Shown: positions 19,028 to 39,390 of the stretch, in pieces
How the letters are laid out: each line of letters begins with the position of its first letter
How positions within the stretch are numbered: position 1 is the first letter of the stretch
Source of the DNA: a virus
Taxonomy: Duplodnaviria; Heunggongvirae; Uroviricota; Caudoviricetes
IMG/VR virus record: IMGVR_UViG_3300026549_002494
Span: 72,468-136,467 of that record
Strand: one strand, 5' to 3'
Length of the DNA stretch: 64,000 nt
Made by a program: the position numbers and the translations under genes
Notes under the pieces: generated by a model
The model's database searches: none
The model's input: the letters and a program-made list of their open reading frames with translations, nothing else
What the model was told of the DNA's origin: nothing

Positions 19028-19873
19028 TTGAAAGAAAAATACATAAAGAGTCCTATAAATTATATAGGCAATAAATACAAACTTATTAGTCAGATTATTC
19101 CGTTATTTCCTGATGAAATCAGCATGTTCGTTGATGTATTTGGTGGTTCAGGAACGGTTTTGATTAATACAAAAGCAGAACATTATATGTATAACGACAT
19201 AAATCCATATGTGTCAAGTATTTTTGAAGGTCTTGTAACAGAAGATACAGATGCAGTAGTAAAGAAAATAGAAGATATTATTACAGAGTATTCACTTAGC
19301 AAAACTAATAAAGAAGGATTTGAGAGACTTCGTGATGACTACAATGCCGGAAAAAACGACTGGATTACACTCTATACATTGATGTGCCACTCATTTAATC
19401 ATCAATTCAGATTCAATAATAACCATCAATATAATAGCAGCTTTGGTAAAAATCGAAGTTATTTTTCAGACAGACAGAAAGAAGACTTATATGCAATGAA
19501 GAAAAATATCAGTACAGATGTTGTATTCTCATCAAAAAGTTTTGTTGACATTGATTACTCAGACTTTGACGAACACGACTTGTTGTATTTTGATCCGCCT
19601 TATTTTGCATCTGTTGGCAATTACAATGATGGCAAAAGAGGATTTGAAGGTTGGACAGAAGAACATGAAAAGAAACTATTAGAATTATTGGACAAGTTAG
19701 ATGAACAAGAAACAAGGTGGGCTTTATCAAATAATTTGAAGTATGACAATCCGTTTTTAGATGAATGGAAAGATAAATATAAGATTCATTATTTGAATGG
19801 CGATTACGTGAACTGTAATTATCACAAAATTGACAGAAGTAAAGATGTGGAAGTATTGATTACAAATTACTAA
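19028..19873 (+). CDS. N6-adenine DNA methyltransferase, Dam-like (alpha class)
   Basis: N-terminal FxGxG (VDVFGGSGTV). C-terminal DPPY (LLYFDPPYF). TTG start. Conserved structured leader with uORF. Confidence 0.75.
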   Translation: MKEKYIKSPINYIGNKYKLISQIIPLFPDEISMFVDVFGGSGTVLINTKAEHYMYNDINPYVSSIFEGLVTEDTDAVVKKIEDIITEYSLSKTNKEGFERLRDDYNAGKNDWITLYTLMCHSFNHQFRFNNNHQYNSSFGKNRSYFSDRQKEDLYAMKKNISTDVVFSSKSFVDIDYSDFDEHDLLYFDPPYFASVGNYNDGKRGFEGWTEEHEKKLLELLDKLDEQETRWALSNNLKYDNPFLDEWKDKYKIHYLNGDYVNCNYHKIDRSKDVEVLITNY

Positions 19874-19963
19874 ATTGACATACTATATATAGTATATAAT
19901 GCAAATTTAACATACAAGATATAGACTAAAATACAGATAAAAGCATTCTTTCATTTGGAAAAT

Positions 19964-19975
19964 AGAGAATAAATA
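19964..19975 (+). promoter_or_regulatory. AGAGAATA(W)ATA recurrent upstream motif (one of 10 copies)
   Basis: Core AGAGAATA or GGAGAATA at 3076, 10226, 14438, 19964, 25097, 31078, 31978, 33025, 36673, 43894. Variant TAGAATAAA at 18964. Always intergenic and 30-130 nt upstream of a + strand gene. Confidence 0.45.
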
Positions 19976-20048
19976 AATACAAGAATAAAACAGAAAGGAA
20001 TAAAGGCGTTGCAACCGTAAGAGATATCTACCTTTCTGGTGAAGAAAA

Positions 20049-20762
20049 ATTAAATACGTTGGTAGTAAAGCAAGAGTTTCAAAAGATATTAGTAAAATTA
20101 TCAATGAAATTATCAAAAAAGAGAATATTAAAATATACATAGAGCCATTTGTTGGTGGCTCAAATATGATTGAACACATTGAATGTGAAAATAAATATGG
20201 TTATGACAATAATGAGTATTTGATTGAATTTTGGAAACAAATACAAAGCGGCTGGAATCCGTTTGATGATGTTGACATGACTAAAGATTTTTATTCTGAA
20301 GTCAAGGATAATAAAGAGGGTTATCCAAAACATATCGTAGCTTTGTGTGGTTTATGTGCTACATACAATGCCAAGTGGTTTGGTGGTTATGCAGGAATTG
20401 TACATACGAAAATGGGAACTGATAGAAACTACTATGATGAAGCAGTCAGAAATGTTTTAAAACAGAGAAACAATATTATGGATGTTATTTACGATTGCAA
20501 GTCTTATGAGGATATTGAAATCGAAGGAGCGTTGATTTATTGTGACCCTCCATATGAGGGAACAACAAAGTATAAAGATGATTTTGCCCACAAGACATAT
20601 TGGGATTGGGTTAGAAAGATGAGTAAGAAAAATATTGTACTTTGTAGCGAATATAACGCACCTGAAGACTTTGAATGTATTTGGACAAAGGAATTAACAA
20701 CTACTTTGGATAAGGCAAGTCGTAGTAAAGCGGTAGAAAAATTATTTAAGTACAATGGATAA
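20049..20762 (+). CDS. Dam-like N6-adenine DNA methyltransferase paralog lacking a canonical start codon (possible ATT start or decaying copy)
   Basis: The frame is open from 20043 and encodes motif I IEPFVGGSN upstream of the first ATG (20166). DPPY at CDPPYEG. About 70% identical to the 31160 protein. The aligned start codon ATG of the paralog is ATT here. Confidence 0.5.
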   Translation: MKYVGSKARVSKDISKIINEIIKKENIKIYIEPFVGGSNMIEHIECENKYGYDNNEYLIEFWKQIQSGWNPFDDVDMTKDFYSEVKDNKEGYPKHIVALCGLCATYNAKWFGGYAGIVHTKMGTDRNYYDEAVRNVLKQRNNIMDVIYDCKSYEDIEIEGALIYCDPPYEGTTKYKDDFAHKTYWDWVRKMSKKNIVLCSEYNAPEDFECIWTKELTTTLDKASRSKAVEKLFKYNG

Positions 20763-20806
20763 TTTTTACATAATTATTGATAAAAAGCAGATAAAAGGTT
20801 TGTTTC

Positions 20807-21310
20807 ATGGCAGAAAGTGAGATGATAAAGATATTAGAGAATAAAGATTATGAGTTATGGAATGGTGATTGTTTAGAATTGATGAAGAACATACCTGATA
20901 AATCTATTGATATGATTCTATGTGATTTACCTTATGGTACGACTGCTTGTAAATGGGATTCAATTATTCCTTTTGACAAATTATGGAAACAATATAATCG
21001 GATTATTAAAGATGATGCTGCAATAGTATTATTTGGGTCAGAGCCTTTTTCAACAGAATTAAGACATAGTAATTTAGAAATGTATAAGTATGATTGGATT
21101 TGGGATAAAAAGAAAAGTTCAAGTGCATTGAATTGTAATTATCAACCATTAAAAACACATGAAATTATTTCTGTGTTTGGTAAAATGGCAACTACATATT
21201 CAAAAAATGGCAATATGAAATACAACCCACAAGGAATAATTCCTTGTGAAAAAGTAAATAAAAGAAATTCTAATAAAGCTGATATTTTTCATAGTACTGT
21301 TGCAAAGTAG
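20807..21310 (+). pseudogene. beta-class amino-MTase N-terminal module (DPPY-like DLPYG) lacking the C-terminal FxGxG: truncated/frameshifted
   Basis: CDLPYGT motif near the N-terminus, but the ORF stops at 167 aa without motif I. A -1 frame continues open from 21295 to 21783. Confidence 0.45.
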
Positions 21311-21783: not shown

Positions 21784-22115
21784 ATTATCATATATACTCA
21801 ACTAAAACTGGCGAGTGCATTAGTAATAACCGTTATGCAGGAATGCCATTTCTTTGGAATAAAACTATTAATATAGGACATCAATGTTTGGTTGAATGGA
21901 TTGATGATACCTTTTTAGGGAAAATCAAACAATGGACAATGATTGAAAAAGTAGAGTCTTGTGATTTACAACCGACTTTTTCGGAAGATTTGATATTCTA
22001 TTATTCAAAATCTGATATTTACGAACTGCGAGATATAATGGATACAAATAAAGATGTGCTTGTGGAGTTAATGGAGAATAATAATAGTGACGGACTAATT
22101 GTTGTGATGATATAA
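21774..22115 (+). CDS. hypothetical protein
   Basis: 113-aa ORF. Confidence 0.35.
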   Translation: MSVDYHIYSTKTGECISNNRYAGMPFLWNKTINIGHQCLVEWIDDTFLGKIKQWTMIEKVESCDLQPTFSEDLIFYYSKSDIYELRDIMDTNKDVLVELMENNNSDGLIVVMI

Positions 22116-22161
22116 GAGGTAATTATACTTTTTATATGGAGAAAGATAGGGGTGTTAATAT

Positions 22162-22524
22162 ATGAGAAAGAAACCTACATATGATTTAGATTGGGTCTAC
22201 TCGCATACTCCATTTAAGAAAATACTTGAAGAAACCTGTGATTTGAAAATTGAAAAATCAAAAATACAAAACCCCGAAGCCCCGGGACTGGATACGAGCT
22301 GGTATCATTATATGATACGATTTAATTTTCCGCGTTTTAAGGAAAGATTTGAGGAAATAAAGAAACAGTTACTCAATACCAATTTGTGTCGCAATAATAA
22401 AGAATACTTTGATTGGATTAATGAATTGGGCTGTTCAACATCCGAGGTATGTCATGTAATTATTGATGGCTGTATAGCAAATCCAGAAGGAAGTTTTGAA
22501 TGGGATTGGTGCGATGATGAATAA
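22162..22524 (+). CDS. hypothetical protein
   Basis: 120-aa ORF. Confidence 0.35.
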   Translation: MRKKPTYDLDWVYSHTPFKKILEETCDLKIEKSKIQNPEAPGLDTSWYHYMIRFNFPRFKERFEEIKKQLLNTNLCRNNKEYFDWINELGCSTSEVCHVIIDGCIANPEGSFEWDWCDDE

Positions 22525-22837
22525 AGAGTTTGATTTTAAAACAGAAGAACAGGTGCCGGATTCTTGGTTAGATAGATGTAGTGATAATGGTTATCAAAGA
22601 TATATAGATAATAATGGTGTTCGTAGATACAGAGATAATGATGAAAAAGTGCGAGATATGCCATATCGTCCATGTGCAAAATGCGGACATTATCCTAATG
22701 AAAATGGTGATGACTATTGTATTCAGAATTTGGGACGAGTTGTAAATGCGTGTTGTGGACATGGAACACATGAGGGATATATCATGTTTGATGACGGAAG
22801 AGTTATAAGAGGAAATTTTAGAGTCGAACATTTATAA
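22496..22837 (+). CDS. zinc-ribbon protein
   Basis: CAKCGH...CCGHGTH cysteine cluster. Confidence 0.35.
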   Translation: MNGIGAMMNKEFDFKTEEQVPDSWLDRCSDNGYQRYIDNNGVRRYRDNDEKVRDMPYRPCAKCGHYPNENGDDYCIQNLGRVVNACCGHGTHEGYIMFDDGRVIRGNFRVEHL

Positions 22838-22876
22838 TGAAACAAACATTTCATGGGGAAAAAATAGGAGGTTTTA

Positions 22877-25066
22877 ATGAGAGTTTTACTATTATTAAGA
22901 GGTTCTGCCGGTTGTGGCAAATCAACTTGGATAGAACAAAATGGCTTAAAGCCGTACACTTTATCAGCCGATGATATTAGATTATTGTGCCAAAGTCCAC
23001 TTATGCAGGTAGATGGTACTGTCGGTATCAGTCAAGCAAATAATAATGTTACTTGGAAGACACTGTTTACATTGCTTGAAGTCAGAATGCAGAAAGGTGA
23101 GTTTACAGTTATTGATGCTACCAATTCTAAGACTTCTGAAATGAACAGGCATAAAGAGATGTGTAATACATACAGATATAGAATTTACTGTGTGGATTTC
23201 ACAGACATTCCTATTGAAGAGGTTAAGCGTAGAAATGCAAACAGAGAACCTTTAAAGAGAGTGCCTGATGAAGTGATTGACAAAATGTATTCAAGATTTA
23301 AGACACAAAAAATTCCTTCAGGTATTAAAGTTATCAAACCTGATGAACTTGATACAATTTGGATGAAAATGTTTGACTTTTCAGAATATAAAAAGATTCA
23401 TCACATAGGCGATATTCATGGTTGTAACACAGCATTGCAGAAATACCTATCCGATAATGGCGGTATCAAAGATGACGAAATGTATATCTTTACTGGTGAC
23501 TATGTTGATAGAGGTCTTGAAAATGCAGAAGTTGTAAAATTCCTTATCTCTATTTCTGACAGGAAGAATGTTCTCATGCTTGAGGGCAATCACGAAAGAT
23601 GGCTTTGGTTATATGCTAATGATTGTGTTGGTAAATCAAAAGAATTTGAATTAGTTACAAAACCACAGTTAGATGATGCAAAGATTGATAAGAAAGATAT
23701 TAGACAGTTATATAGGAAGTTTGGTCAGTGTGCTTATTACAAGTATGGAGATAATGTTTATCTTGTTACACATGCTGGGTTAAGTACAATGCCTGACAAC
23801 CTATCTTATGTTGCGACAGAACAGATGATTAAAGGTGTAGGTAATTACAACGACTTTGAAAAGATTGCCGAAACCTTTATAAATACCACTTCTGACAACG
23901 TTTATCAAATTCACGGACACAGAAATACAAAAGCACTGCCCGTAAAAGTGAATGACAGGGTTTATAATCTTGAAGGTCGAGTTGAATTTGGCGGTTGTTT
24001 AAGATGTGTACAGGTTGACAAAGACGGCATTCGTACCATCGAGGTTGAAAATGAAGTGTTTAAGACCCCTGAGATGAGAAGCGAACAGACCGTAACAAGT
24101 AGTTCAGTAGCTGATACAATTATAGCACTGCGTTCTAATAAGTACATTCAAGAAAAGAAATTTGGCAATATTTCATCTTTCAATTTTACAAACAAAGCTT
24201 TCTACGATAAGGTTTGGGATGAGCAGACTACAAAAGCAAGAGGTTTGTATATTGATACGAAAAAGGGCAAAGTTGTTGCAAGAGCATATGAGAAGTTCTT
24301 TAATATTAATGAAAGACCTGAAACTAAGTTTGATATGTTGCAATATAAACTTCGGTTCCCAGTAACAGCTTATGTAAAAGAAAATGGTTTCTTAGGTATT
24401 GTAAGTTATAACGAATATGAAGATGATTTGTTTATAGCAAGTAAATCCACCATTGATAGTCAGTTTGCACAGTGGTTCAAAGAGATGTTATATAGTAAGA
24501 TTTCCTCTGATAACATTAGTAAGATGAAGCAGTTTATCAAAGAAAATGACGTATCGTTTGTGTTTGAATGTGTTGATATGAAGAACGATCCTCACATTAT
24601 TGAATATCCAAAGAGCGCATTATTCCTACTTGATATTGTTAAGAACGATATGAATTTCGAGAAGTTTGAATACGAAGCGATGGTTGATATTGCAAATCAG
24701 CTTGGCATTACTCCAAAAGAAAAGGCAATCGAAATTGCTACTTGGCAGGACTTCTTTGATTGGTATTATGACATATTAGAAGAAGACTATGAATACAATG
24801 GACGAAAAATTGAGGGTTTTGTTATTGAAGATAGCGTAGGATATATGACCAAACTCAAGCTTACATACTATAACTTCTGGAAGTTTATGAGAAGTATTTC
24901 TCATGAGGCAATTAAGAATGGCTATATCAAAAAGACATCTGCTTTGACAACTCCGACAGCAAAGGAGTATTATGCATGGGTTAGAAAGCTTCATGACGTA
25001 GAAGATAAAGACAGTTTGCCAAAAGATATTTGTACTTTGAGAAGACTATTCTATAAAGATAGGTGA
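22877..25066 (+). CDS. Pnkp-like trifunctional RNA repair enzyme: polynucleotide 5'-kinase / 2',3'-phosphoesterase / ligase-like adenylyltransferase
   Basis: P-loop LLRGSAGCGKST. Calcineurin-like phosphoesterase motifs GDIHG, GDYVDRG, GNHE. C-terminal nucleotidyltransferase motif I YVKENGFLG (KxNG), as in bacterial Pnkp ligase domains. Confidence 0.7.
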   Translation: MRVLLLLRGSAGCGKSTWIEQNGLKPYTLSADDIRLLCQSPLMQVDGTVGISQANNNVTWKTLFTLLEVRMQKGEFTVIDATNSKTSEMNRHKEMCNTYRYRIYCVDFTDIPIEEVKRRNANREPLKRVPDEVIDKMYSRFKTQKIPSGIKVIKPDELDTIWMKMFDFSEYKKIHHIGDIHGCNTALQKYLSDNGGIKDDEMYIFTGDYVDRGLENAEVVKFLISISDRKNVLMLEGNHERWLWLYANDCVGKSKEFELVTKPQLDDAKIDKKDIRQLYRKFGQCAYYKYGDNVYLVTHAGLSTMPDNLSYVATEQMIKGVGNYNDFEKIAETFINTTSDNVYQIHGHRNTKALPVKVNDRVYNLEGRVEFGGCLRCVQVDKDGIRTIEVENEVFKTPEMRSEQTVTSSSVADTIIALRSNKYIQEKKFGNISSFNFTNKAFYDKVWDEQTTKARGLYIDTKKGKVVARAYEKFFNINERPETKFDMLQYKLRFPVTAYVKENGFLGIVSYNEYEDDLFIASKSTIDSQFAQWFKEMLYSKISSDNISKMKQFIKENDVSFVFECVDMKNDPHIIEYPKSALFLLDIVKNDMNFEKFEYEAMVDIANQLGITPKEKAIEIATWQDFFDWYYDILEEDYEYNGRKIEGFVIEDSVGYMTKLKLTYYNFWKFMRSISHEAIKNGYIKKTSALTTPTAKEYYAWVRKLHDVEDKDSLPKDICTLRRLFYKDR

Positions 25067-25104
25067 TGGAATTTGAGTTTAATTGACAAATAAGAAAGAG
25101 AATA

Positions 25105-25440
25105 TCTAAATAGACGGTTCCGCTAAGCTCCAGTCATTTCGATGGCAAAGAAATGCAGTGATTGTGGCGCAGATTAAATCGTGAGCAGTTAAGGGTCCAC
25201 AGCCGTCACAAGGTGCTATCTTTACATAATAGTTAAATGTCCAGTAAGGCTAAGGTGCTATGGTGCTCACATAGACCGACAGAGGAAACAGCCTAATATT
25301 TTATATGGGATAGCAACTCAAATGGCAGAGGAATTGGTAAACCTCAGACGCAGAAAGCTTCCAATTTATATTAAAAATTATGAGCAGGAGAATGTAAATG
25401 ATTTTTGTCGATATTAAAAATATCAAGAATAACGATGAAA
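25105..25440 (+). ncRNA. candidate structured non-coding RNA (GC-rich island inside the RNA-repair cassette)
   Basis: About 340 nt with no RBS-bearing ORF. GC about 45% against a 32% background. Upstream TTGACA (25083) plus an AGAGAATA motif (25097). Internal repeats AAGGTGCTAT x2. Confidence 0.25.
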
Positions 25441-25524
25441 ATAAATTTTCAATGGAGAATAAATAAACATAACTAAATACGAAAGGAGTATGAGTGCCGG
25501 CTTAATCTCATGAGGCTCTGAGTA

Positions 25525-26262
25525 GTGAATTTGAAAGGAAACAAAATTGGTGAAGAGCATCTGATTTTTAATGAAAACGCAATGGATGTTCTTGATTTTA
25601 TGATTAACAAGGGCAAGAAAGTTGATATGATTTTCACAGACCCACCTTATAAAATAACTTCCCGTGGTAATGGCGGAAATTCCGGTGGAATGTTCCAAAA
25701 GAAAGAAGTTAATAACGGAAAGGTTTTTTCGGTCAATAATTTAGAAATAGAAGATTGGCTACCTAAATTTTTTGAAGTCTTAAAAGACGATTCTCATTGT
25801 TATATTATGACCAACAACAAAAATATCACGCATTATCTTGATGTTATAAACAAGTCCGATTTTCATTTTGTCAAATGTCTCATATGGGTTAAAGATAATA
25901 AGATTATGGGTCAGTCCTATATGAGTCAATTCGAGTACATAATTATGCTCCGCAAAGGTTCTCATAAGAGAATTAATAATTGCGGAACAAGTGATGTTTT
26001 ACAGATTCCAAACAAAAAATTAAAGGGTGAAGATGGGAAAACCATTCACGACACCGAAAAACCAGTAATGCTTACGGATATTCTCGTTGAAAATTCATCA
26101 AATGAGGGAGACACAATTTTGGATCCGTTTATGGGTATTGGTGGATGTGGTGTAAGTGCGGCAAAGTTAAAACGAAAATTCATTGGTTGTGAATTGGAGA
26201 ATAGATATTATGATGTCTCCCAGCAGAGAATTAACGATGCAGTAGGAGAGAACTGCTATTAA
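25525..26262 (+). CDS. beta-class N6A/N4C DNA methyltransferase
   Basis: N-terminal FTDPPY, C-terminal DPFMGIGGCG (FxGxG). GTG start. Leader homologous to that of the 19028 gene. Confidence 0.7.
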   Translation: MNLKGNKIGEEHLIFNENAMDVLDFMINKGKKVDMIFTDPPYKITSRGNGGNSGGMFQKKEVNNGKVFSVNNLEIEDWLPKFFEVLKDDSHCYIMTNNKNITHYLDVINKSDFHFVKCLIWVKDNKIMGQSYMSQFEYIIMLRKGSHKRINNCGTSDVLQIPNKKLKGEDGKTIHDTEKPVMLTDILVENSSNEGDTILDPFMGIGGCGVSAAKLKRKFIGCELENRYYDVSQQRINDAVGENCY

Positions 26263-26297
26263 TGAAAGCAGGGTTTCATTAATAAAATGGAGGTGAT

Positions 26298-27329
26298 TTG
26301 ATGAATATTTCTGAAATTAAAGCAGAGATTAAGAAGCCTGAATATGACTTTTTAGAGAAAAATGAGCATTTAGGTAAGAATATTATCCTGCTTGGCTTAG
26401 GTGGCTCTCATGCATACGGCACAAACACAGAAACATCTGATTTGGATATTAGAGGTTGTGCGTTAAATCGTAAGAATGAAATCCTTACAAATGAGAATTT
26501 TGAGCAGTTTGTAAACGAAGAAACCGACACAACAATCTATTCTTTCAACAAACTTATCTCTTTGTTAAGTAACTGTAATCCAAATACGATTGAGATTTTA
26601 GGTTTAAAACCTGAACACTACTTATATTTGTCGCCAATAGGTCAAGAATTACTTGATAAAAGAAAATTATTTTTGTCAAGAAGAGCGGCCCATTCTTTTG
26701 GTGGGTATGCAACCGCACAATTAAGACGGCTCGACAACAAAGCGGCTCGACTTGTAGACCAATCTCAGCAAGAAAAACATATTCTTGGTAGTATTCAAAA
26801 TGCTATGTATGATTATAAACGTAGATACTTTGAATTTGAAGATGATGCTATTAAGTTGTATGTTGATAAAGCAGTTCAAGAAGGATATGATACTGAAATC
26901 TTTATGGATATAAATTTACACCACTATCCGCTTCGTGACTACAAATCTATGTGGTCAGAAATGAATAATGTTATTAAAGATTATTCAAAGATAGGCAAGA
27001 GAAATCAGAATGCTATCGAGCATGGGAAACTTGCAAAACATATGATGCATCTTATTAGGCTTTACATTATGTGTCTTGACATCTTGGAACGAGAAGAAAT
27101 CGTTACTTATAGAGAAAAAGAACACGATTTTCTTATGAGCATCCGAAATGGAGAGTTTTTGGATGATAATAGGCAGCCTATCCCAGAGTTTTTTGAAATG
27201 GTAGATGAGTTTGAAAAGAAACTTGAATATGCAAAAGCAAATACGTCACTAAAAGATAATCCTGATTATAAGGCTATCAATGAATTTGTAATGAGTGTCA
27301 ATGAGAGGGTGGTAAAGGGTGAAGTTTAA
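26298..27329 (+). CDS. Pol-beta superfamily nucleotidyltransferase (predicted RNA-repair-associated NTase)
   Basis: GS...D.D signature LGLGGSHAYGTNTETSDLDIRG. Translationally coupled (overlap) with the CCA-adding enzyme gene. Confidence 0.5.
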   Translation: MMNISEIKAEIKKPEYDFLEKNEHLGKNIILLGLGGSHAYGTNTETSDLDIRGCALNRKNEILTNENFEQFVNEETDTTIYSFNKLISLLSNCNPNTIEILGLKPEHYLYLSPIGQELLDKRKLFLSRRAAHSFGGYATAQLRRLDNKAARLVDQSQQEKHILGSIQNAMYDYKRRYFEFEDDAIKLYVDKAVQEGYDTEIFMDINLHHYPLRDYKSMWSEMNNVIKDYSKIGKRNQNAIEHGKLAKHMMHLIRLYIMCLDILEREEIVTYREKEHDFLMSIRNGEFLDDNRQPIPEFFEMVDEFEKKLEYAKANTSLKDNPDYKAINEFVMSVNERVVKGEV

Positions 27330-28665
27330 TATTAATATTCCTGACGGAGCCAATCTTCTCATTCACGCCCTTCAGGACAACGGATATTCCGCTTATGTTG
27401 TAGGCGGTTGTGTCCGGGATAGTATATTGGGTAGAGAACCACATGACTGGGATATATGCACATCTGCCACTCCTGAGCAAATGCTTGAAGTTTTTAAGGA
27501 TAGACGAGTCATCGAAACCGGATTACAACACGGTACTATTACAGTAGTAGTTGATAAAATTCCATATGAAATTACGACTTATAGAATAGACGGAGATTAT
27601 TCAGACAATCGAAGACCCGATAGTGTAACCTTTACAGATAATCTCATCGAAGATTTGAAACGTAGAGATTTTACTATAAATGCAATAGCTTATAACGATG
27701 CACAAGGTTTGGTTGATCCGTTTCATGGAATTGAAGATATTGAATGTGGGAAGATACAGTGTGTCGGCTCTGCAAAAGAGCGATTTAACGAGGATGCTTT
27801 GAGAATTTTAAGAGCAATTCGATTTGCTTCTCAGCTTGAATTTAGTATTGAGCCGGAAACAGATTGGCAAATTCATCAACTCTATAAAAATTTAGAGAAT
27901 ATATCAGTAGAGAGAATTAACGGTGAATTCTGCAAAATTGCATCGTTTGATAACTTTTGTGTAGAACTCTTGCTTTATAAAGATGTGTTCTCTTTATTTA
28001 TCCCAGAATTAAAAGGCATGATTGATTTTCCTCAAAATAACCCTTGGCACATTTACAATGTGTTTGACCATACGATACACGCTGTTGCCGAATGTGGTTC
28101 AAAGGATTTAATTACAAGACTTGCAGTGTTATTTCACGATTTCGGAAAGCCTCATTCCTATCAGGATGGAGAAGATGGCATTAGACATTTCAAGGGTCAT
28201 GCAAAAGTCAGTGCAGATATGACAGATTCAATCATGAAACGATTGAGATTTGATAACGATACAAGAAACAAGGTTGTTGAGTTGGTACAATATCACGATG
28301 CTACATTTTCAGTCGGTAAGAAATATGTCAAAAAATGGCTTAATAAGATTGGTGAAAAACAGTTTAGGCGATTAATTAAATTAAAAGAGGCAGATAACAA
28401 AGCTCAGAACTTGGAACGTTCCAACGAAAGAATTGGAGAGTTACACGAAATTGAGTCTCTTATAGATGAAGTTTTGAAAGAGCAGGAGTGTTTTTCTCTA
28501 AAGGATTTGGCTGTTAAGGGAGAAGATTTAATCAATATCGGTTATAAACCTGGAAGAGCGTTAGGTGCCGCATTGAGAGGATTGCTTGATTGCGTTATAG
28601 CCGAAGAAGTGGAGAATAATAAAGTAGAGTTATTAAAGTTGGCAAGTAAATGGTTGCCACGATAA
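27319..28665 (+). CDS. cca: tRNA nucleotidyltransferase (CCA-adding enzyme) with HD domain
   Basis: Head-domain motif VVGGCVRDSILGREPHDWDICT. C-terminal HD region VLFHDFGKP. Confidence 0.8.
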   Translation: MKFNINIPDGANLLIHALQDNGYSAYVVGGCVRDSILGREPHDWDICTSATPEQMLEVFKDRRVIETGLQHGTITVVVDKIPYEITTYRIDGDYSDNRRPDSVTFTDNLIEDLKRRDFTINAIAYNDAQGLVDPFHGIEDIECGKIQCVGSAKERFNEDALRILRAIRFASQLEFSIEPETDWQIHQLYKNLENISVERINGEFCKIASFDNFCVELLLYKDVFSLFIPELKGMIDFPQNNPWHIYNVFDHTIHAVAECGSKDLITRLAVLFHDFGKPHSYQDGEDGIRHFKGHAKVSADMTDSIMKRLRFDNDTRNKVVELVQYHDATFSVGKKYVKKWLNKIGEKQFRRLIKLKEADNKAQNLERSNERIGELHEIESLIDEVLKEQECFSLKDLAVKGEDLINIGYKPGRALGAALRGLLDCVIAEEVENNKVELLKLASKWLPR

Positions 28666-28735
28666 ATCTATACTTTTGTTGGTATTTTAGAAATCGTTAA
28701 ATTATGTTAAAGGTAAATAAAAATTGTAGAGAGTA

Positions 28736-29095
28736 ATGAGCAAGACCGAAGATTTCCATAGAGGTGGGAGAATGAAAATGAGATTACTGTGCATTAAAGA
28801 TTTTATAGCGGTCACCGATATGCACGGAGATAATGACCCAAAAGAAATTTGCTATTCTGAGGGCACTGAGTATAACGCTATAATTGATATGCCATACAAC
28901 GGAAGCAGACTTGAAGTTCCGGGTAGGAAGAACAGCTACACCTTTCCTTACCATATAGACGACATCAAAAAGTATTTTATATTTGCTTTTGATAAAGAAA
29001 GACACGATAAAATCTATACGAAAGTTAAAAATTGCAAAATATATATTGATTCTAAATGTTTTGACGTGGGAGAAGCAATAATTAAACAGGAGTAA
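28736..29095 (+). CDS. hypothetical protein
   Basis: 119-aa ORF. An internal ATG (MKMRLL) after GGTGGGAG is the likely true start. Confidence 0.3.
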   Translation: MSKTEDFHRGGRMKMRLLCIKDFIAVTDMHGDNDPKEICYSEGTEYNAIIDMPYNGSRLEVPGRKNSYTFPYHIDDIKKYFIFAFDKERHDKIYTKVKNCKIYIDSKCFDVGEAIIKQE

Positions 29096-29099
29096 ATGA

Positions 29100-29396
29100 A
29101 TGAAAAATCAACTTTCTAAAAGAGAATATAAATATAGATGCAAAATTATAGCCGAGAATCATTTGAAGAAAGAGTGTCAAATATATCTTGATAGTTACGT
29201 AGACTCAAAGTGGCTTACATATAAAGATGTCTATCTTAACAAAGTGGTGCTGCTTCGCATCAAAGCTGCACACAATTTTCAATCAGCCAGCAAAGCAATG
29301 TGGAAAGCAGGAATGTCAGCTAAAGAAGTGTCTGATGCTTTCAATAATTTTGCACAGACACTAAAACCTTGGTTGGAGGATGACATAGATGGATAA
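29100..29396 (+). CDS. hypothetical protein
   Basis: 98-aa ORF. Confidence 0.35.
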   Translation: MKNQLSKREYKYRCKIIAENHLKKECQIYLDSYVDSKWLTYKDVYLNKVVLLRIKAAHNFQSASKAMWKAGMSAKEVSDAFNNFAQTLKPWLEDDIDG

Positions 29397-29622
29397 GACA
29401 ATTCATTTTGAAAATGGCTCAAAGATAGAAATATTGCAAGCCAAAGAATCAAAACGCAGTAAGCGTGGTGAAGAACAAATGAAACAAATAATAACCCGCT
29501 ATAGAAAATCACCATATGAACTTGCAAAATATACTATGGGAGATACTTGGAACAATCTACATTGGTATCAAAAACTTTATTATAGAATTTATTGTGAATG
29601 GACAAGGAGAATATGTAAATGA
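29389..29622 (+). CDS. hypothetical protein; paralog of the 39955 ORF
   Basis: Shared N-terminal pattern F-NGS-I...KRSKRG...Q...I...Y-K-P with the ORF at 39955. Confidence 0.35.
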   Translation: MDKTIHFENGSKIEILQAKESKRSKRGEEQMKQIITRYRKSPYELAKYTMGDTWNNLHWYQKLYYRIYCEWTRRICK

Positions 29623-31159: not shown

Positions 31160-31909
31160 TTGAAATACATGGGAAGTAAAAGTCGGATTGCGAAACATAT
31201 CGTGCCGATTATACAAAAGTATATAGATGAAAATAGTATTACTACATACATTGAACCCTTTGTAGGCGGTGCTAATGTAATTGATAAGATTAAATGCGAA
31301 AACAAGCTCGGCTCAGACTTGAACAGATATTTGATTGCGTTGCTGAGACACGTAAGAGATGGTAATGATTTATATGAAGGTGTGCCAAAAGATCTTTACG
31401 ACAAGGCGAGAACGGCATTTAACAACGGAGACACTTTTGAATTTGAGGATTGGGAGATTGGAAATATTGGGTTTATCGCATCATATAACGGCAGGTGGTT
31501 TGACGGCGGTTATGCAAAGCCGGGATATGAAAAGACCAAGAACGGTGAAAGGTATAGAGACTATTATCGTGAAGCAAAGGATAACCTTATGGAACAAGCA
31601 CCTAATCTAAAAGGTATACGGTTTATACACGAAGATTACCGAAGTTATGAGCCTAACGGATGTTTAATATACTGCGACCCACCATATGCAAATTCAAAGC
31701 AGTATGCTAATGCGACCAAGTTTAACTATGATGAATTTTGGAACACGATGAGAGAGTGGTCAAAAGATAACATAGTTCTTATTAGTGAACAAATCGCACC
31801 TGATGATTTTGAATGCATATGGGAAAAAGAATTGACAACGACACTTGATAAGAATAGTAGAAGTTCGGCCGTTGAAAAACTATTCGTGTACAAATCACAC
31901 AATATATAG
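31160..31909 (+). CDS. Dam-like N6-adenine DNA methyltransferase
   Basis: N-terminal MKYMGSKSR and IEPFVGGAN (motif I). DPPY at CDPPYAN. Preceded by a 6-codon uORF MDFLVK. Confidence 0.75.
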   Translation: MKYMGSKSRIAKHIVPIIQKYIDENSITTYIEPFVGGANVIDKIKCENKLGSDLNRYLIALLRHVRDGNDLYEGVPKDLYDKARTAFNNGDTFEFEDWEIGNIGFIASYNGRWFDGGYAKPGYEKTKNGERYRDYYREAKDNLMEQAPNLKGIRFIHEDYRSYEPNGCLIYCDPPYANSKQYANATKFNYDEFWNTMREWSKDNIVLISEQIAPDDFECIWEKELTTTLDKNSRSSAVEKLFVYKSHNI

Positions 31910-32005
31910 TATTAATACATTAAAACAAACACAATATACAGTATTGAGTTTTCAATGAAACTTTTGTTTCATTGAACAGAGAATAATATAATAAACGCAG
32001 TAGTT

Positions 32006-32995
32006 GTGAAAATAAAGGAGGATGAAAAATTATTGAATAACGGATTAAATGTTTTAAGCCTATGTGACGGCATGAGCTGTGGACACATCGCATTAGACAA
32101 AGCTGGATATACAATAAACAAATATTTTGCGGCGGAAATTAAGGACATTGCTATCAAAGTAACAAAAGATAATTATCCAAACACAATTTATATTGGAGAT
32201 GTGAATAAAGTTACATATAAAGATGGGGTACTACATACAGAGACTGGAGATTTTAAGATAAAAATTGATATTGTAATGTTCGGAAGTCCATGTCAGAGTT
32301 TTTCCAGAGCAATGATTAAAGAAAAAAAGATTGGACTTGAAGATCCTAAGCGTTCTGGGTTATTTTATGAGTGCAATAGAGTTTTAAGAGAAGTCAACCC
32401 AAAATATTTCCTTATGGAAAATGTAGTAATGAAGTCAGACGATGAAAAAATTATCAGTGACATGATGGGGGTGCATCCAATTAGGATCAATTCTTCTCTA
32501 ATAACGGCACAGCTAAGAGATAGATATTATTGGACTAATATTCCAAATGTTTCAATTCCGGAAAATAAAAATATTACATTACAAGATGTTTTACTTGATG
32601 GTTATGTTCCGAATGAAAAAGCTAAGTGTTTGTGCAAAAACGACTCTCATGGATATTATAACGGTTGTAATTGGACACCAATTAAAAGATTTCATAGATT
32701 TTGGTATAAATCATTTGGCACTATGGTATTTCCTTCAAAAGAATATTTTGATAACTGCATAGAAATAACAAAGAGGATATTGGACGGTAGAAAATCTTCT
32801 GCAAAATTGTATGATGATTATATTGGACATGATTTTGATAACGCAAGATATTTGTGGAAAGAAGAAAGGGCAAGACTGCAATCTGTACCAGAAGGATATG
32901 TAAAAAACTTATCCGAAAAAGAAGCGGCTGATGTACTGGGAGATGGATGGACTGTTGATGTAATTGCTCATATACTTAGTTTTATGGAGTTTTGA
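32006..32995 (+). CDS. C5-cytosine DNA methyltransferase (Dcm-like)
   Basis: Motif I-like LSLCDGMSCG. PCQ motif FGSPCQSFSRA. ENV. Probable true start TTG at 32033, 11 nt after AAAGGAGGA. Confidence 0.7.
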   Translation: MKIKEDEKLLNNGLNVLSLCDGMSCGHIALDKAGYTINKYFAAEIKDIAIKVTKDNYPNTIYIGDVNKVTYKDGVLHTETGDFKIKIDIVMFGSPCQSFSRAMIKEKKIGLEDPKRSGLFYECNRVLREVNPKYFLMENVVMKSDDEKIISDMMGVHPIRINSSLITAQLRDRYYWTNIPNVSIPENKNITLQDVLLDGYVPNEKAKCLCKNDSHGYYNGCNWTPIKRFHRFWYKSFGTMVFPSKEYFDNCIEITKRILDGRKSSAKLYDDYIGHDFDNARYLWKEERARLQSVPEGYVKNLSEKEAADVLGDGWTVDVIAHILSFMEF

Positions 32996-33133
32996 AAATT
33001 TAATAAGACACTTATTTTATCGAACAGAGAATAAATACATTAAACACAGCAGTTGCAAATGCTGTGAAATAACAGAAAGGAATAAACAGTAACACCGGTT
33101 AAAAAGATTACGTAATCCCTGTAAGGGTATATT

Positions 33134-34627
33134 TTGAAAAAAGAAAAATTAACAGCAAATATTTTATTTTCCGGAATCGGCTGTCAAGAGCGTGGATTCC
33201 AAAATTCTAATCTATTTGATTTAGAGGTCTTAAATACATCTGACATCTGTAAAGAGTCCGTCTTATCCTATGCTGCCATTCATTGTGGACTGACAAATGA
33301 AATGGTAGAAAATTATCCCGATTATCCTTCGAGAGAAGAAATGGCAAAAGAATTAACAGAGATTAATTTAGGTTATGAGCCTGAAAAAGATAAGTGTTTT
33401 GACTGGGCTAAGTTGGTAAAAAGAAAAAATAAAGATCTTGAAAAATATTGGTTGGCAAATAAATTGTCACATAATTTGGGTGATATAAGTAAAATTGAAG
33501 AATTACCGTATGCTGATTTGTGGACTTGCAGTTTTTGTTGTCAGGACATCAGCGTCGCTGGCAAAATGAAAGGCTTAAATCCCGATAGTGGTACTCGCAG
33601 CAGTTTGCTTTGGGAAAATATTCGTCTGCTTAAAAAAGCAAGAGATAATAATATTTCTCCAAAATATATTATGTTTGAAAATGTTAAAAATCTTGTAAGT
33701 AAAAGATTTATAGACGATTTTAATAATTTACTTGAAGTCCTTGATGAACTTGGTTTTAATTCATACTGGAAGGTACTTAATGCAAAAGAATGTGGAGTCC
33801 CACAAAATAGAGAAAGAGTATTTGTTATAAGTATCCGTAAAGATATTGATAAAAATACATTTTACTTTCCGTCACCGTTTGATAACGGATTAAGATTAAA
33901 AGATGTTCTCGAAGAAGTTGTTGATGAGAAATACTATTTATCAGATGATAAAGTTGAGAAGTTTAAGAAGAATTTCAATATTGAAAGCGATAGTGTTACT
34001 ACTCGCAATGCTGACATAGCTTCTTGTATTAGAGCAACTTATTATAAGAATGGTTCAAGAAATATATGTGAAAACATTGAAAATGGGAAAGGTTACGAGG
34101 GTGTAGTTGAAGTTTCTCCTAACAGAGAATATAAAATAGGTAACGTATATAATCCAAAGCATACCGGCGGCAGTTTCGCAGGAAATGTATATGATAAAAG
34201 GGGCTTATGCCCAGCTTTATCTACTATGCAAGGTGGCGGCAGACAGCCTCACGTGGTAACGGGATTAGTTTCTAATAAGGGTGAAAAGTTTGAGAAGCAA
34301 ACAGATTTTGCAAATACTCTTCTTGCAAGAGATTACAAAGGCTTTGGTAATCAGCAAATGAATTGTATAGTTTACACAGATGATATACGAATCCGTAAGC
34401 TTACACCCAGAGAGTGCTATGTTTTGATGGGTCTTACTTTTGAAGATTGTGACAAGGCGGCAGAAATAGGAGTTACGAATACTCATCTTTATAAACAGGC
34501 TGGTAATGGCATTGTTACGAACTGTGTTGAACTTATAGCAGAGCATTTGTATAAAGCACAGTATGATAATACATATGTATGCACCGATGAGAAGATGGCA
34601 AATTTTATGAACTCACAGTCGGAATAA
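33134..34627 (+). CDS. C5-cytosine DNA methyltransferase
   Basis: LFSGIGCQE (motif I), FCCQDISVAG (catalytic Cys region), ENVKNL (motif VI), QAGNG (motif X). TTG start. Confidence 0.7.
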   Translation: MKKEKLTANILFSGIGCQERGFQNSNLFDLEVLNTSDICKESVLSYAAIHCGLTNEMVENYPDYPSREEMAKELTEINLGYEPEKDKCFDWAKLVKRKNKDLEKYWLANKLSHNLGDISKIEELPYADLWTCSFCCQDISVAGKMKGLNPDSGTRSSLLWENIRLLKKARDNNISPKYIMFENVKNLVSKRFIDDFNNLLEVLDELGFNSYWKVLNAKECGVPQNRERVFVISIRKDIDKNTFYFPSPFDNGLRLKDVLEEVVDEKYYLSDDKVEKFKKNFNIESDSVTTRNADIASCIRATYYKNGSRNICENIENGKGYEGVVEVSPNREYKIGNVYNPKHTGGSFAGNVYDKRGLCPALSTMQGGGRQPHVVTGLVSNKGEKFEKQTDFANTLLARDYKGFGNQQMNCIVYTDDIRIRKLTPRECYVLMGLTFEDCDKAAEIGVTNTHLYKQAGNGIVTNCVELIAEHLYKAQYDNTYVCTDEKMANFMNSQSE

Positions 34628-38172: not shown

Positions 38173-39390
38173 TTAAACAGCTTTGTAAAGTTGCCCTGTT
38201 TTCTCTAAATGATAAACTAATCGCACAAGTTTCTTGGCAGCATGAGATATAGCGACGTTGTAGTGCTTACCTTCGCCTTGCTTTTTAGCAAGGTATTCAG
38301 CAAAAGATGAATCCCAATGGCAAACATACTTTGTTGCATTAAACAGAGCGTATCTCAAGTATCGGGAACCACGCTTCTCCATATGTGAATAGGTAGAAGT
38401 TAGTTGCCCTGACTGATATGTTGATGGCGATAAACCTGCATAAGCAAGAATTTTATCAGGTGAAGAAAACCTATCAAAATCACCGATTTCAGCGATTATC
38501 ATAGCTCCCATACGATAACTGATGCCGGGAATGCTGAGAATAGGAGAATTAATTTTATCCATTATGGATTTAATAGCTTCTTCAATTTCTTTGATTTCAG
38601 TGTCAAGTTCTTTTATGAGCTTAATGGTATGCTTTAATTCAAGAGATTTGGCAGGCATAACAGAGCCGATAGAGTTTCTTGCAATATCCCGAAAGCGAAT
38701 AGCAGTATCGCGGTTGTATCTGCCTTTTGAGGCTTCATATAGCAGATTCGTTAGTCGCGTAAGGTGAGCTTCAGCAATGTGATGAGCTGACGGAAATTCC
38801 GAGAGCAACGCATAGATAGACTTCATATGTAGAGTTGGAACCGCCTTTTCGAGTTCAGGAAAAAGAATGTTAACAAGTCTTGCGATGGATTGTTTAAGCT
38901 TGGCTCTTTCAGAAACTTTATCAAATCTGTATCTTGTTAGTGACTTTAACTCTTCGTTATGGTACAATGTATTCGAGTAGGACTTTAAGTTCACATCAGA
39001 CATTAACATCATAGCGATAGTATGAGCATCAACCTTATCTGTTTTAGTCTTTCTGAGGGTGAGACTTTTTCGATACAGATTGGTATGTAGTGGATTGATA
39101 ACAAAGGTCGGCAAGCCTTTATCAAGAAGATACCCAAGCAGATTGTATGAGTAATGTCCTGTGGCTTCAAGCCCTACTTTTACTTTGTTCAAATCATCTG
39201 TAACCGATAAAATTTTTTGATAAAGATTATCAAAACCTTCCATTGTGTTTGGAATGGTGAAGGCATTAAAGAGAACTTCACCATCGGAGTTACAAATAAA
39301 GCAGTCATGCTTATCCTTTGCAACATCAATTCCGGCATAAATCATAAAACAACCTCGTTTCAATAGAATTTTGATACTGTTTAGACCCAC
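38173..39390 (-). CDS. IS110-family DEDD transposase
   Basis: N-terminal MIYAGIDVAKDKHD signature. Full-length 405 aa. Probable true start at M of MIYAGID. Confidence 0.8.
   Translation of the reverse strand: MGLNSIKILLKRGCFMIYAGIDVAKDKHDCFICNSDGEVLFNAFTIPNTMEGFDNLYQKILSVTDDLNKVKVGLEATGHYSYNLLGYLLDKGLPTFVINPLHTNLYRKSLTLRKTKTDKVDAHTIAMMLMSDVNLKSYSNTLYHNEELKSLTRYRFDKVSERAKLKQSIARLVNILFPELEKAVPTLHMKSIYALLSEFPSAHHIAEAHLTRLTNLLYEASKGRYNRDTAIRFRDIARNSIGSVMPAKSLELKHTIKLIKELDTEIKEIEEAIKSIMDKINSPILSIPGISYRMGAMIIAEIGDFDRFSSPDKILAYAGLSPSTYQSGQLTSTYSHMEKRGSRYLRYALFNATKYVCHWDSSFAEYLAKKQGEGKHYNVAISHAAKKLVRLVYHLEKTGQLYKAV

Follow-up and report, generated by a model that had tools for sequence, protein, structure and literature searches.

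The question raised by the locus described here is what kind of RNA repair is encoded by a phage that carries, on one strand and in close proximity, a trifunctional RNA end-healing and end-sealing enzyme, an RlaP-family nucleotidyltransferase and a CCA-adding enzyme, and whether these genes represent a single repair cassette. The locus is located at positions 22877-28665 (+ strand) of a 64,000-nucleotide (nt) stretch of Caudoviricetes DNA (IMG/VR record IMGVR_UViG_3300026549_002494, positions 72,468 to 136,467), this entire stretch being referred to as the window. It encompasses four complete open reading frames (ORFs), and not three as given in the initial annotation of this sequence: the gene for the trifunctional enzyme (22877..25066, +; 729 amino acids (aa), with an AGGAGG ribosome-binding site 7 nt upstream), a DNA N6-adenine/N4-cytosine methyltransferase gene (25525..26262, +; 245 aa), an RlaP-family Pol-beta nucleotidyltransferase gene (26298/26301..27329, +; 343/342 aa) and a class II CCA-adding enzyme gene with a GTG start (27319..28665, +; 448 aa). 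In the current work, the repair genes were found to fall into two modules, which probably act together to restore tRNAs, and possibly other RNAs, that have been cut by ribonucleases of the host or of a competitor. Each of the parts belongs to a kind of phage RNA-repair gene that has been described before, and the locus is a good example of such genes and not a new system.

The 729-aa protein carries all of the motifs from which its composition had initially been read (GSAGCGKST at residue 9, GDIHG at 178, GDYVDRG at 207, GNHE at 237 and KENG at 501), and the presence of a kinase, a metallophosphoesterase and a ligase in one chain was borne out by Pfam searches, which returned AAA_33, Metallophos and RNA_lig_T4_1 with E-values far beyond chance. 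The polynucleotide 5'-kinase domain (residues ~1-150, 22877..23326, +; AAA_33 at residues 4-142, E 6.8e-19) contains the P-loop G9-T17 and residues D32 and R35 within the motif S-x-D-x-x-R. It is followed by a binuclear metallophosphoesterase domain (residues ~165-395, 23369..24061, +; Metallophos at residues 173-329, E 3.5e-14), which includes H299 and H346-H348 in addition to the GDIHG, GDYVDRG and GNHE motifs, and which is predicted to act as a 2',3'-cyclic phosphodiesterase/3'-phosphatase. The C-terminal part is represented by an ATP-dependent RNA ligase domain with a Trl1-LIG/Rnl6-like appearance (residues ~420-729, 24134..25066, +; motif I K501-E-N-G, motif III E564, motif IV E646-G647 and motif V K659/K661). 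A ligase of the Rnl2 type had been suggested for this region; the profile that was matched is PF09511 (RNA_lig_T4_1), of the Rnl1/Trl1 type, at residues 453-665 with an E-value of 1.7e-41 and 143 bits against a cut-off of 28.3, the profile being covered over positions 1-227 of 227. The whole protein corresponds end to end to PHROG 8238 ('RNA ligase') with 750 bits.

Conservation was assessed in a set of 16 homologues and in a set of 93 diverse homologues (42-96% identity). The residues invariant in the set of 93 comprise P-loop G14/K15, D32 and R35 of the kinase, the metal ligands D179, H181, D208, N238, H239, H299 and H346/H348 of the phosphoesterase, and K501, N503, E564, E646/G647, K659/K661, R455 and K473 of the ligase; the catalytic residues are also invariant in the set of 16. 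The catalytic residues are thus intact, and their conservation is purifying.

The same 93 homologues were used to build an AlphaFold2 model of the protein (mean predicted local distance difference test score (pLDDT) 91.8, predicted template modelling score (pTM) 0.73, with a single disordered linker at residues 401-406), which was then compared by Foldseek to the Protein Data Bank (PDB), with template modelling (TM) scores taken on the target. The fold of the kinase is nearest to that of the Clostridium thermocellum Pnkp (CthPnkp) kinase (4gp7/4jst; TM 0.74-0.76, root mean square deviation (rmsd) ~3.1-3.5 Å), and the phosphoesterase is nearest to lambda phosphatase (1g5b, TM 0.65) and the CthPnkp phosphatase (4j6o, TM 0.67). 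For the ligase region, the nearest neighbours of the predicted fold are fungal Trl1-LIG structures (9qw7, 8rbj, 6n0t, 6n0v and 6n67; E 1.9e-19 to 2.3e-17, TM 0.66-0.69, rmsd 3.6-4.3 Å), with 9qw7 as the top match (E 1.9e-19, TM 0.69), followed by T4 Rnl1 (2c5u; E 3.9e-13, TM 0.54, rmsd 10.6 Å). The sequence comparisons point in the same direction: a phmmer search of the PDB with the ligase domain alone recovered only fungal Trl1-LIG (E 1.6e-13), T4 Rnl1 not being recovered even at E<=10, and a profile of 16 sequences was aligned to Candida glabrata Trl1-LIG (9qw7) over residues 449-729, that is, up to the extreme C-terminus, with E 9.5e-26, at an identity of ~22-24% between the ligase and Trl1-LIG. 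In the predicted structure, helices at residues 663-681, 693-707 and 718-728 form a candidate all-helical C-terminal module of the Rnl6 type. The match to PHROG 562 (T4 Rnl1; E 1.2e-31) stops at residue 679, and the C-terminal domain specific to T4 Rnl1, which is associated with specificity for the tRNA anticodon loop, was not recovered by phmmer, PHROG 562 or Foldseek.

These results bear on the notion, put forward in the initial annotation, that the enzyme is a bacterial Pnkp which has lost its Hen1 partner. The kinase-phosphatase half is indeed Pnkp-like, since its two domains have their best structural matches in CthPnkp, the order of the domains is the same, and TIGR04075 (bacterial Pnkp) is the top NCBIfam match. 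Likewise, no Hen1-like gene was found among the called genes with precomputed Pfam families in ~48 kb around the ligase gene (loci L004, L122 and L123, L numbers denoting the individual loci of our collection), where the sole methyltransferases are DNA methyltransferases. However, TIGR04075 is matched with 69.9 bits, its cut-off being 750, and over model positions 10-325 of 851 only; the ligase covers the whole of PF09511 and has Trl1-LIG and T4 Rnl1 as its neighbours in structure, and no Pnkp ligase domain is present among the 50 best PDB fold matches. Membership of the bacterial Pnkp family is refuted by the PF09511, TIGR04075 and fold results, and descent from a Pnkp deprived of Hen1 is extremely improbable. 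As judged from profiles and predicted structure, the family combines the Pnkp domain order and Pnkp-like healing domains with a fused ligase of the Trl1/Rnl1 type. Because ligases of the latter type work without Hen1, its absence is expected and does not constitute an anomaly.

The similarity to Trl1 can be followed to individual residues. In fungal LIG, the requirement for a 2'-phosphate has been attributed to a His-Arg-Arg triad described as unique to the Trl1 clade (PMC6379707), represented in CthLIG by H227, R334 and R337 and confirmed by mutagenesis (PMC11404444; bioRxiv 10.1101/2024.06.06.597711). In our profile alignment, which compares sequence positions only, the CthLIG triad corresponds to H573, K669 and R672, the first Arg being replaced by Lys. 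H573 is located nine residues after motif III, as in Trl1, while K669 and R672 are found at +9 and +12 after motif V when a gap of one residue is allowed; all three are invariant in the 93 homologues, as is the motif I Asn N503, the CthLIG counterpart of which also contacts sulfate. The triad is compatible with a Trl1-like 2'-phosphate pocket, though it does not amount to proof. That the enzyme would be a prokaryotic member of Trl1-LIG (Rnl6) which recognises a terminal 2'-phosphate through H573, K669 and R672 is regarded by us as unlikely. Against it stands the retention of H181, the histidine of GDxHG, in the phosphoesterase, considering that mutation of this histidine in CthPnkp yields a 2'-phosphate in place of a 2'-OH (PMC1920235). 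A KptA/Tpt1 gene is, furthermore, absent from the window, and KptA is not listed in the Staphylococcus or SPbeta-like phages that bear the fusion. In its favour, a KptA gene (PF01885, 159 bits) is located directly upstream of RlaP-CCA in L071 (L071:9357-9926; IMGVR_UViG_3300045988_142974), a contig which also encodes the ligase and which is the only one among ~150 related loci to carry KptA, and in Clostridioides phage AR1086-1 (L152) kptA is situated ~5 kb from RlaP. If true, the sealed junction would keep its 2'-phosphate and would represent a natural substrate for bacterial or phage Tpt1/KptA, an enzyme whose substrate in bacteria has, to our knowledge, long been unknown.

The fusion is by no means confined to the phage under study. 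By tblastn, the 729-aa protein was matched in 516 phage records, in 113 of which at least 80% of the query was covered; these 113 are SPbeta-like Bacillus phages, an Alicyclobacillus phage, Twort, and Sep1-like and other Staphylococcus phages. The phage copies are labelled 'RNA ligase', 'tRNA ligase' or 'polynucleotide kinase', and the NCBI name for the Bacillus and Paenibacillus copies is 'RNA ligase'. More than 4,000 homologues were retrieved from a metagenomic protein collection, and the ligase domain alone returned 3,397 clusters (50% identity) at E<=1e-3, the best of which are mostly proteins of ~720-790 aa with the ligase in C-terminal position. The fusion is thus abundant, with thousands of members, yet biochemically unstudied as far as the searchable literature is concerned, and its ligase is Trl1-like and not like those of T4 Rnl1 or Pnkp.

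The second module is formed by the RlaP and CCA-adding enzyme genes, both of which are present as initially annotated, with their catalytic motifs intact and conserved. The RlaP protein matches PF10127 with 68.3 bits (cut-off 23) and PHROG 388 with 187 bits. Its start is placed at the ATG at 26301, which is preceded by GGAGGTG and gives a protein of 342 aa, while a TTG at 26298 would give 343 aa; residue numbers are counted from this TTG. The signature S..YGT....SD.D.RG. (Pol-beta GS...DxD) is kept, and a set of 65 unique homologues (46-100% identity) shows conservation of 97% or more for S36, D48, D50 and the TDT motif. A search of solved structures by sequence returned nothing for RlaP at E<=1. 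The name of the family refers to its recurrent association with RNA ligases (PMC12776372; PMC7824862), and two Pseudomonas RlaPs were shown in 2025 to add one or two nucleoside monophosphates (NMPs) to RNA 3'-OH ends, the broken end of the anticodon loop being preferred in a comparison with an intact 3' end (PMC12776372). In the same study, RlaPs were proposed as antidotes to nucleases that excise nucleotides, such as RloC (PMC12776372).

The product of the gene at 27319-28665 is, by its best matches, a full CCA-adding enzyme. It reaches 303.3 bits with NF009814 ('CCA tRNA nucleotidyltransferase'), at or above the equivalog cut-off of 290, and Pfam returned a PolyA_pol head (E 7.7e-39) and a C-terminal HD domain, as had been anticipated, together with an RNA-binding domain and tRNA_NucTran2_2. 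Its best PDB matches are the Planococcus and Geobacillus CCA-adding enzymes (6ibp, E 2.6e-55; 1miv, E 1.1e-54), and over the catalytic core the protein shares about half of its residues with solved CCA-adding enzymes and can be aligned motif by motif to 6ibp, whereas poly(A) polymerase models from the PDB and NCBIfam score far below the CCA-adding models. Motifs A (GGxVRD...DxD), B (RRD), C and D (EDxxR) and the HD residues are at least 97% conserved in 45 homologues.

RlaP and CCA constitute a conserved two-gene module in this phage group. In the window the two genes share 11 nt (27319-27329), and a Shine-Dalgarno-like GAGAGGG run precedes the GTG start of the CCA gene. On 52 of 80 viral contigs bearing an RlaP relative (57-78% identity), a CCA gene is found within 10 kb of RlaP, and on 48 it follows RlaP directly, by a few bases or with an overlap; the pair was also observed in L009, L038/L124 and L149. 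A role may be suggested for this pairing by analogy to the damage caused by Cas12a3, which removes 2-4 nt from tRNAs and can reach as far as the discriminator base (PMC12851939): ends trimmed to this base need N73 and then CCA, which fits an adder of one or two nucleotides followed by a CCA-adding enzyme. Independently of the 2'-phosphate reading, and with no greater likelihood, the pair may be dedicated to tails trimmed past CCA, RlaP restoring N73 and the CCA enzyme restoring the tail. The pairing in this manner provides a concrete substrate hypothesis for RlaP, namely the rebuilding of 3' tails, at a time when immune nucleases cleaving tRNA tails have just been described.

Some further ORFs were noted in the vicinity of these genes. 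An ORF of ~308 aa directly follows CCA in 24 related loci (L072:12388-13314 and 23 others); its N-terminus reads MVKLFSHTDLDGIGCG, and its HTDLDGIG motif recalls DHH phosphoesterases, with no Pfam match at 1e-3. It is not present in the window, where a 119-aa ORF (28736-29095) follows CCA. A 141-aa ORF near RlaP in L070 was considered Thg1-like by eye and was dropped as a candidate, having no Pfam match. In RlaP loci without CCA (L043, L045 and L053), ORFs located ~1-6 kb downstream were labelled by eye as nicotinamidase, ribose-phosphate pyrophosphokinase-like protein, nicotinamide/nicotinate phosphoribosyltransferase, macro domain and NAD synthetase, these NAD-salvage-like labels being unconfirmed by profile search; if they hold, the set would be of a kind linked to counter-defence.

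In order to determine how the two modules relate to each other, we compared 33 viral and 28 genomic loci built around the ligase gene and the 80 viral loci centred on RlaP. RlaP is present within 10 kb of the ligase gene in ~7 of ~60 ligase-centred loci (L009, L028/L029, L033, L038/L124, L127 and L149), and the ligase gene is present within 10 kb of RlaP in only one of the 80 RlaP-centred loci. The gene order is RlaP-CCA-ligase in L009 and ligase-RlaP in L028/L029, and the distance between the ligase gene and RlaP-CCA amounts to 1.2 kb in the window, 7.4 kb in L038 and ~13 kb on 3300045988_142974. The two are thus mostly inherited as separate modules and not as one cassette, while their close juxtaposition in differing orders hints at some benefit of proximity. 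The initial annotation had described a single cassette of three translationally coupled genes, which applies only to the RlaP/CCA overlap: the nucleotidyltransferase gene does not adjoin the 729-aa gene, from which it is separated by 458 nt (25067-25524) without an ORF of more than 41 aa and by the methyltransferase gene at 25525-26262, which had been overlooked (N6_N4_Mtase, E 8e-31; PHROG 67, DNA methyltransferase; DPPY motif). This methyltransferase gene does not belong to the RNA-repair set.

The results above establish what the domains are, how they fold, that their catalytic residues are intact and conserved, and how the genes are linked. From these observations we infer the substrates of the enzymes, the order of their reactions and a role in counter-defence, which would be as follows. 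The kinase of the fusion would phosphorylate 5'-OH ends, and the binuclear metallophosphoesterase would open and remove 2',3'-cyclic phosphates or 3'-phosphates. The healed ends would then be joined by the Trl1/Rnl1-type ligase via a lysyl-AMP on K501, without Hen1. Where a 3'-OH end is short of bases, one or two nucleotides would be restored by RlaP, and the tRNA 3' tail would be rebuilt by the CCA-adding enzyme, the HD domain of which may clean the tail. In the CCA enzyme of E. coli, the HD domain does clean the tail. Genes of this kind are generally interpreted as serving the repair of RNA, in particular of tRNA (PMC7824862; PMC12776372), as had been done in the initial annotation, although the CCA enzyme may, at least in part, serve the maturation of phage tRNAs, a role distinct from counter-defence.

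Several observations weigh against joint action of the two modules in counter-defence. No target defence nuclease was identified, an ordinary alternative function exists for the CCA enzyme, and in the searchable literature no biochemical study of the kinase-phosphatase-ligase fusion or of these proteins was found. In relatives, the distance between the ligase gene and RlaP-CCA usually exceeds 10 kb, so that synteny does not oblige the two to act jointly, and in the window a methyltransferase gene and a decayed tRNA locus lie between them. It is credible, if short of an even chance, that the ligase and RlaP-CCA act separately on different kinds of RNA damage and became neighbours by chance through a variable accessory-gene region. 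The rarity of the ligase gene near RlaP, the lack of RlaP/CCA within 10 kb in most ligase-centred loci, the larger spacings in L038 and on 3300045988_142974, and the methyltransferase gene, promoter-like site and tRNA remnant between the modules in the window would all be in agreement with this. Nevertheless, the close juxtaposition in differing orders (L009 versus L028/L029) suggests selection for proximity, RlaP owes its name to recurrent association with RNA ligases, and both modules usually occur in the same genomes.

The alternative job of the CCA enzyme, perhaps shared by RlaP, would be mainly to mature the phage's own CCA-less tRNAs, resulting in a greater tRNA supply and not in the repair of damage. 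An encoded CCA is absent from 85 of 107 tRNA genes in related loci (L022-L119), including pairs of tRNA-Gln(UUG) and tRNA-Lys(UUU) that recur within a few kb of RlaP-CCA; tRNA-Gln and tRNA-Lys are classical targets of anticodon nucleases. Maturation would also accord with the tRNA arrays that adjoin the ligase gene in relatives (L022, L033, L037 and L028), with the decayed tRNA locus directly after the ligase gene in the window, and with the occurrence of CCA-adding enzymes in 368 phage records, many of them tRNA-rich. Against these points, no intact tRNA gene is present in the 64-kb window or in ~9 kb further upstream (L122), and Firmicutes hosts need and possess a CCA-adding enzyme of their own. 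In addition, maturation leaves unexplained the overlapping pairing with RlaP, an adder of one or two nucleotides that favours damaged ends (PMC12776372). On balance, maturation as the main role is possible, with more to make it doubtful than to recommend it, and maturation and repair are compatible with each other. A quite improbable explanation is that the genes protect the lysogen and not the phage, by being expressed from the prophage and repairing host tRNAs cut by toxins of competitors (colicin-like or contact-dependent tRNases) or by stress toxins of the host. An integrase beside bacterial genes identifies the element as a prophage, which is widespread in gut Lachnospiraceae genomes, and cellular RlaP/RtcB systems have been proposed to act in this way (PMC12776372); yet the neighbouring genes on the same strand concern replication and nucleotide metabolism (DNA polymerase, helicase, ligase and NrdD), as is typical of lytic early/middle transcription, and the same fusion occurs in strictly lytic Staphylococcus phages such as Twort. 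The joint restoration of cut tRNAs by the two modules is retained as the probable function, and the locus represents a well-preserved case of phage-borne RNA repair in under-studied hosts, the gut Lachnospiraceae, to which no new principle is added.

For the non-coding region between the ligase and methyltransferase genes (25067-25524), the most fitting interpretation is that of a promoter followed by a conserved leader and by what is left of a tRNA gene. A sigma-70-like promoter, TTGACA-18 nt-TAAATA (25083..25112, +), was read from the sequence as a consensus match only, and TTGACA/TTGAAT plus TATAAT/TACAAT are found at the same position in five homologous loci. It is followed by a conserved leader of 96 nt (25113..25208, +), the homologues of which in L039, L121, L172, L248 and L262 always precede tRNA or tRNA-like genes, for example tRNA-Gln(UUG). 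In this lineage, the usual place of the ligase gene is thus next to tRNA genes, as is also seen in L022, L033 and L037. Further downstream, the apparent remnant of a tRNA gene (25307..25331, +) retains the acceptor 5' strand and D-arm and lacks the 3' half; 21 of its 25 bases equal the 5' end of the tRNA-like gene after the leader in L121, and L039 and L248 share this 5' motif. In a possible drawing of the leader, a terminal stem of 7 bp is combined with two hairpins, the first of which varies in length, with 23 additional nt in the window and L248, while the second is short. We make no claim to an RNA structure, because the consensus fold of 19 pairs displays no compensatory change among six near-identical copies. 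Fold z-scores in the region were +0.96/+0.95 (241 nt, each strand), those of the leader as a single sequence were weak, and the G+C content of the region is 43-44% as compared to ~33% in its surroundings.

Searches of 25067-25524 returned no Rfam family, whether with the gathering threshold or with E<=1, no tRNA by ARAGORN or Rfam, and no match in cultured phages; a group I intron and a Y-RNA-like RNA were considered for this region and dropped, with nothing in their support. Scans for the exact leader pattern yielded one extra viral and three metagenomic loci, most of the 111 metagenomic matches being chance 16-mers. No terminator-like site was detected on the + strand at 22000-29500, and promoter-like sites are no commoner than in shuffled sequences, so transcription units could not be deduced. 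Among the tRNA genes of related phages, some are unusual: a tRNA-Gly(ACC) with a 9-nt anticodon loop was recorded (listed loci L039:16274-16346, L248:509-585, L065:5229-5379 and L121:7030-7150, - strand), the tRNA-like gene of L248 seemingly has no normal anticodon arm, that of L121 contains a long insertion, and in L065 an ochre-suppressor-type tRNA (anticodon TTA) is located beside a tRNA with a 4-base anticodon call.

With respect to its origin, the window belongs to a temperate prophage of large size whose hosts are gut Lachnospiraceae/Clostridia. An identical 729-aa protein is encoded on a 238.6-kb metagenome contig of the European Nucleotide Archive (ENA), and homologues with 64-89% identity are present in genomes and metagenome-assembled genomes (MAGs) of Lachnoclostridium, Acetatifactor, Kineothrix, Coprococcus and other Lachnospiraceae/Clostridia. 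In L123 (Logan SRR7971122), a relative, the gene series of the right end continues at L123:15226-19427 with NrdD/NrdG, an NlpC/P60 protein, a dUTPase and an integrase, beyond which bacterial genes follow on the other strand (peptidase U32, O-methyltransferase and YceG). The integrase beside bacterial genes therefore marks the end of a prophage and indicates that the element integrates. In cultured phages, only DNA fragments of 50-65 nt match the window, from which it follows that this phage is not in the phage collection.

The genes of the window are nearly all on one strand and include a DNA polymerase III alpha-like gene, helicases, an NAD-dependent DNA ligase and at least five DNA methyltransferases. 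The latter are unusually concentrated at 19028-21310, 25525-26262 and 31160-34627, and comprise Dam-like MethyltransfD12 genes at 19028-19873 and 31160-31909 and two C5 methylases at 32006-32995 and 33134-34627. In the first of these intervals, the ORF at 20166-20762 has no Pfam match on record and a C-terminus resembling that of the Dam-like gene at 31160-31909, and a DPPY-type ORF at 20807-21310 is apparently truncated at its C-terminus, as seen from its translation only. An IS605 OrfB/TnpB (Cas12f-like) transposase is encoded at 12444-13601 (+), a second transposase (PHROG 2199) at 38173-39390 (-), and a 508-aa protein with GmrSD_N (DUF262), a domain known from type IV restriction enzymes, at 15918-17444 (+).

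Comparison with known systems places the locus among several of them. The jumbo-phage repertoires surveyed by Iyer et al. in 2021 similarly combine an ATP-grasp-type RNA ligase, a kinase, a phosphoesterase (occasionally calcineurin-like), RlaP and CCA, and were interpreted as tRNA counter-defence (PMC7824862). Such surveys handle RlaP and the CCA enzyme as separate components, and in the text available an overlapping RlaP-CCA pair or a Trl1-like ligase is not mentioned. The Pseudomonas proteins PfRlaP and PaRlaP share PF10127, the GS...DxD signature and a nearby RNA ligase gene with the RlaP of the window, but are located in RtcB-RtcA operons, whereas here the partner is CCA, with a 5'-phosphate ligase nearby.

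Phage T4, by means of its Pnkp and Rnl1, likewise encodes tRNA healing and sealing, the classical counter to the PrrC anticodon nuclease. The adenylyltransferase core of T4 Rnl1 is homologous to that described here, as indicated by the PHROG 562 and Foldseek matches; the two ligases diverge in their C-terminal modules (TM 0.54, rmsd >10 Å), and T4 has its kinase-phosphatase and its ligase as two proteins. We know of no CCA-adding enzyme in T4. The T4 phosphatase is a DxDxT/HAD enzyme (PMC3592404), and T4 also encodes an RlaP, NrdC.11 (PMC12776372). The initial description of the present locus as more elaborate than T4 is not upheld, given this RlaP and the combinations already catalogued in jumbo phages (PMC12776372; PMC7824862). 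With CthPnkp, the N-to-C order of kinase, metallophosphoesterase and ligase is shared, as is the GDxHG histidine (H181 here; PMC1920235), while its ligase belongs to the Rnl4 clade and not to an Rnl1/Rnl6-like one, Hen1 is not found here, and the TIGR04075 score of the present enzyme is an order of magnitude under the cut-off.

Trl1 (Rnl6; PDB 6N0V, 6N67, 8RBJ and 9QW7) differs in its order of ligase, kinase and cyclic phosphodiesterase (CPD), as opposed to kinase, phosphatase and ligase here, in having a 2H cyclic phosphodiesterase instead of a binuclear metallophosphoesterase, and in the first Arg of its triad, which is K669 here, the overall ligase identity being low, as given above. It is, nonetheless, the nearest solved relative of the ligase both by sequence and by predicted fold, with the K-E-N-G of motif I, the His nine residues after motif III and the basic-x-x-Arg after motif V in common, and in both cases the ligase is contained within a trifunctional heal-and-seal polypeptide.

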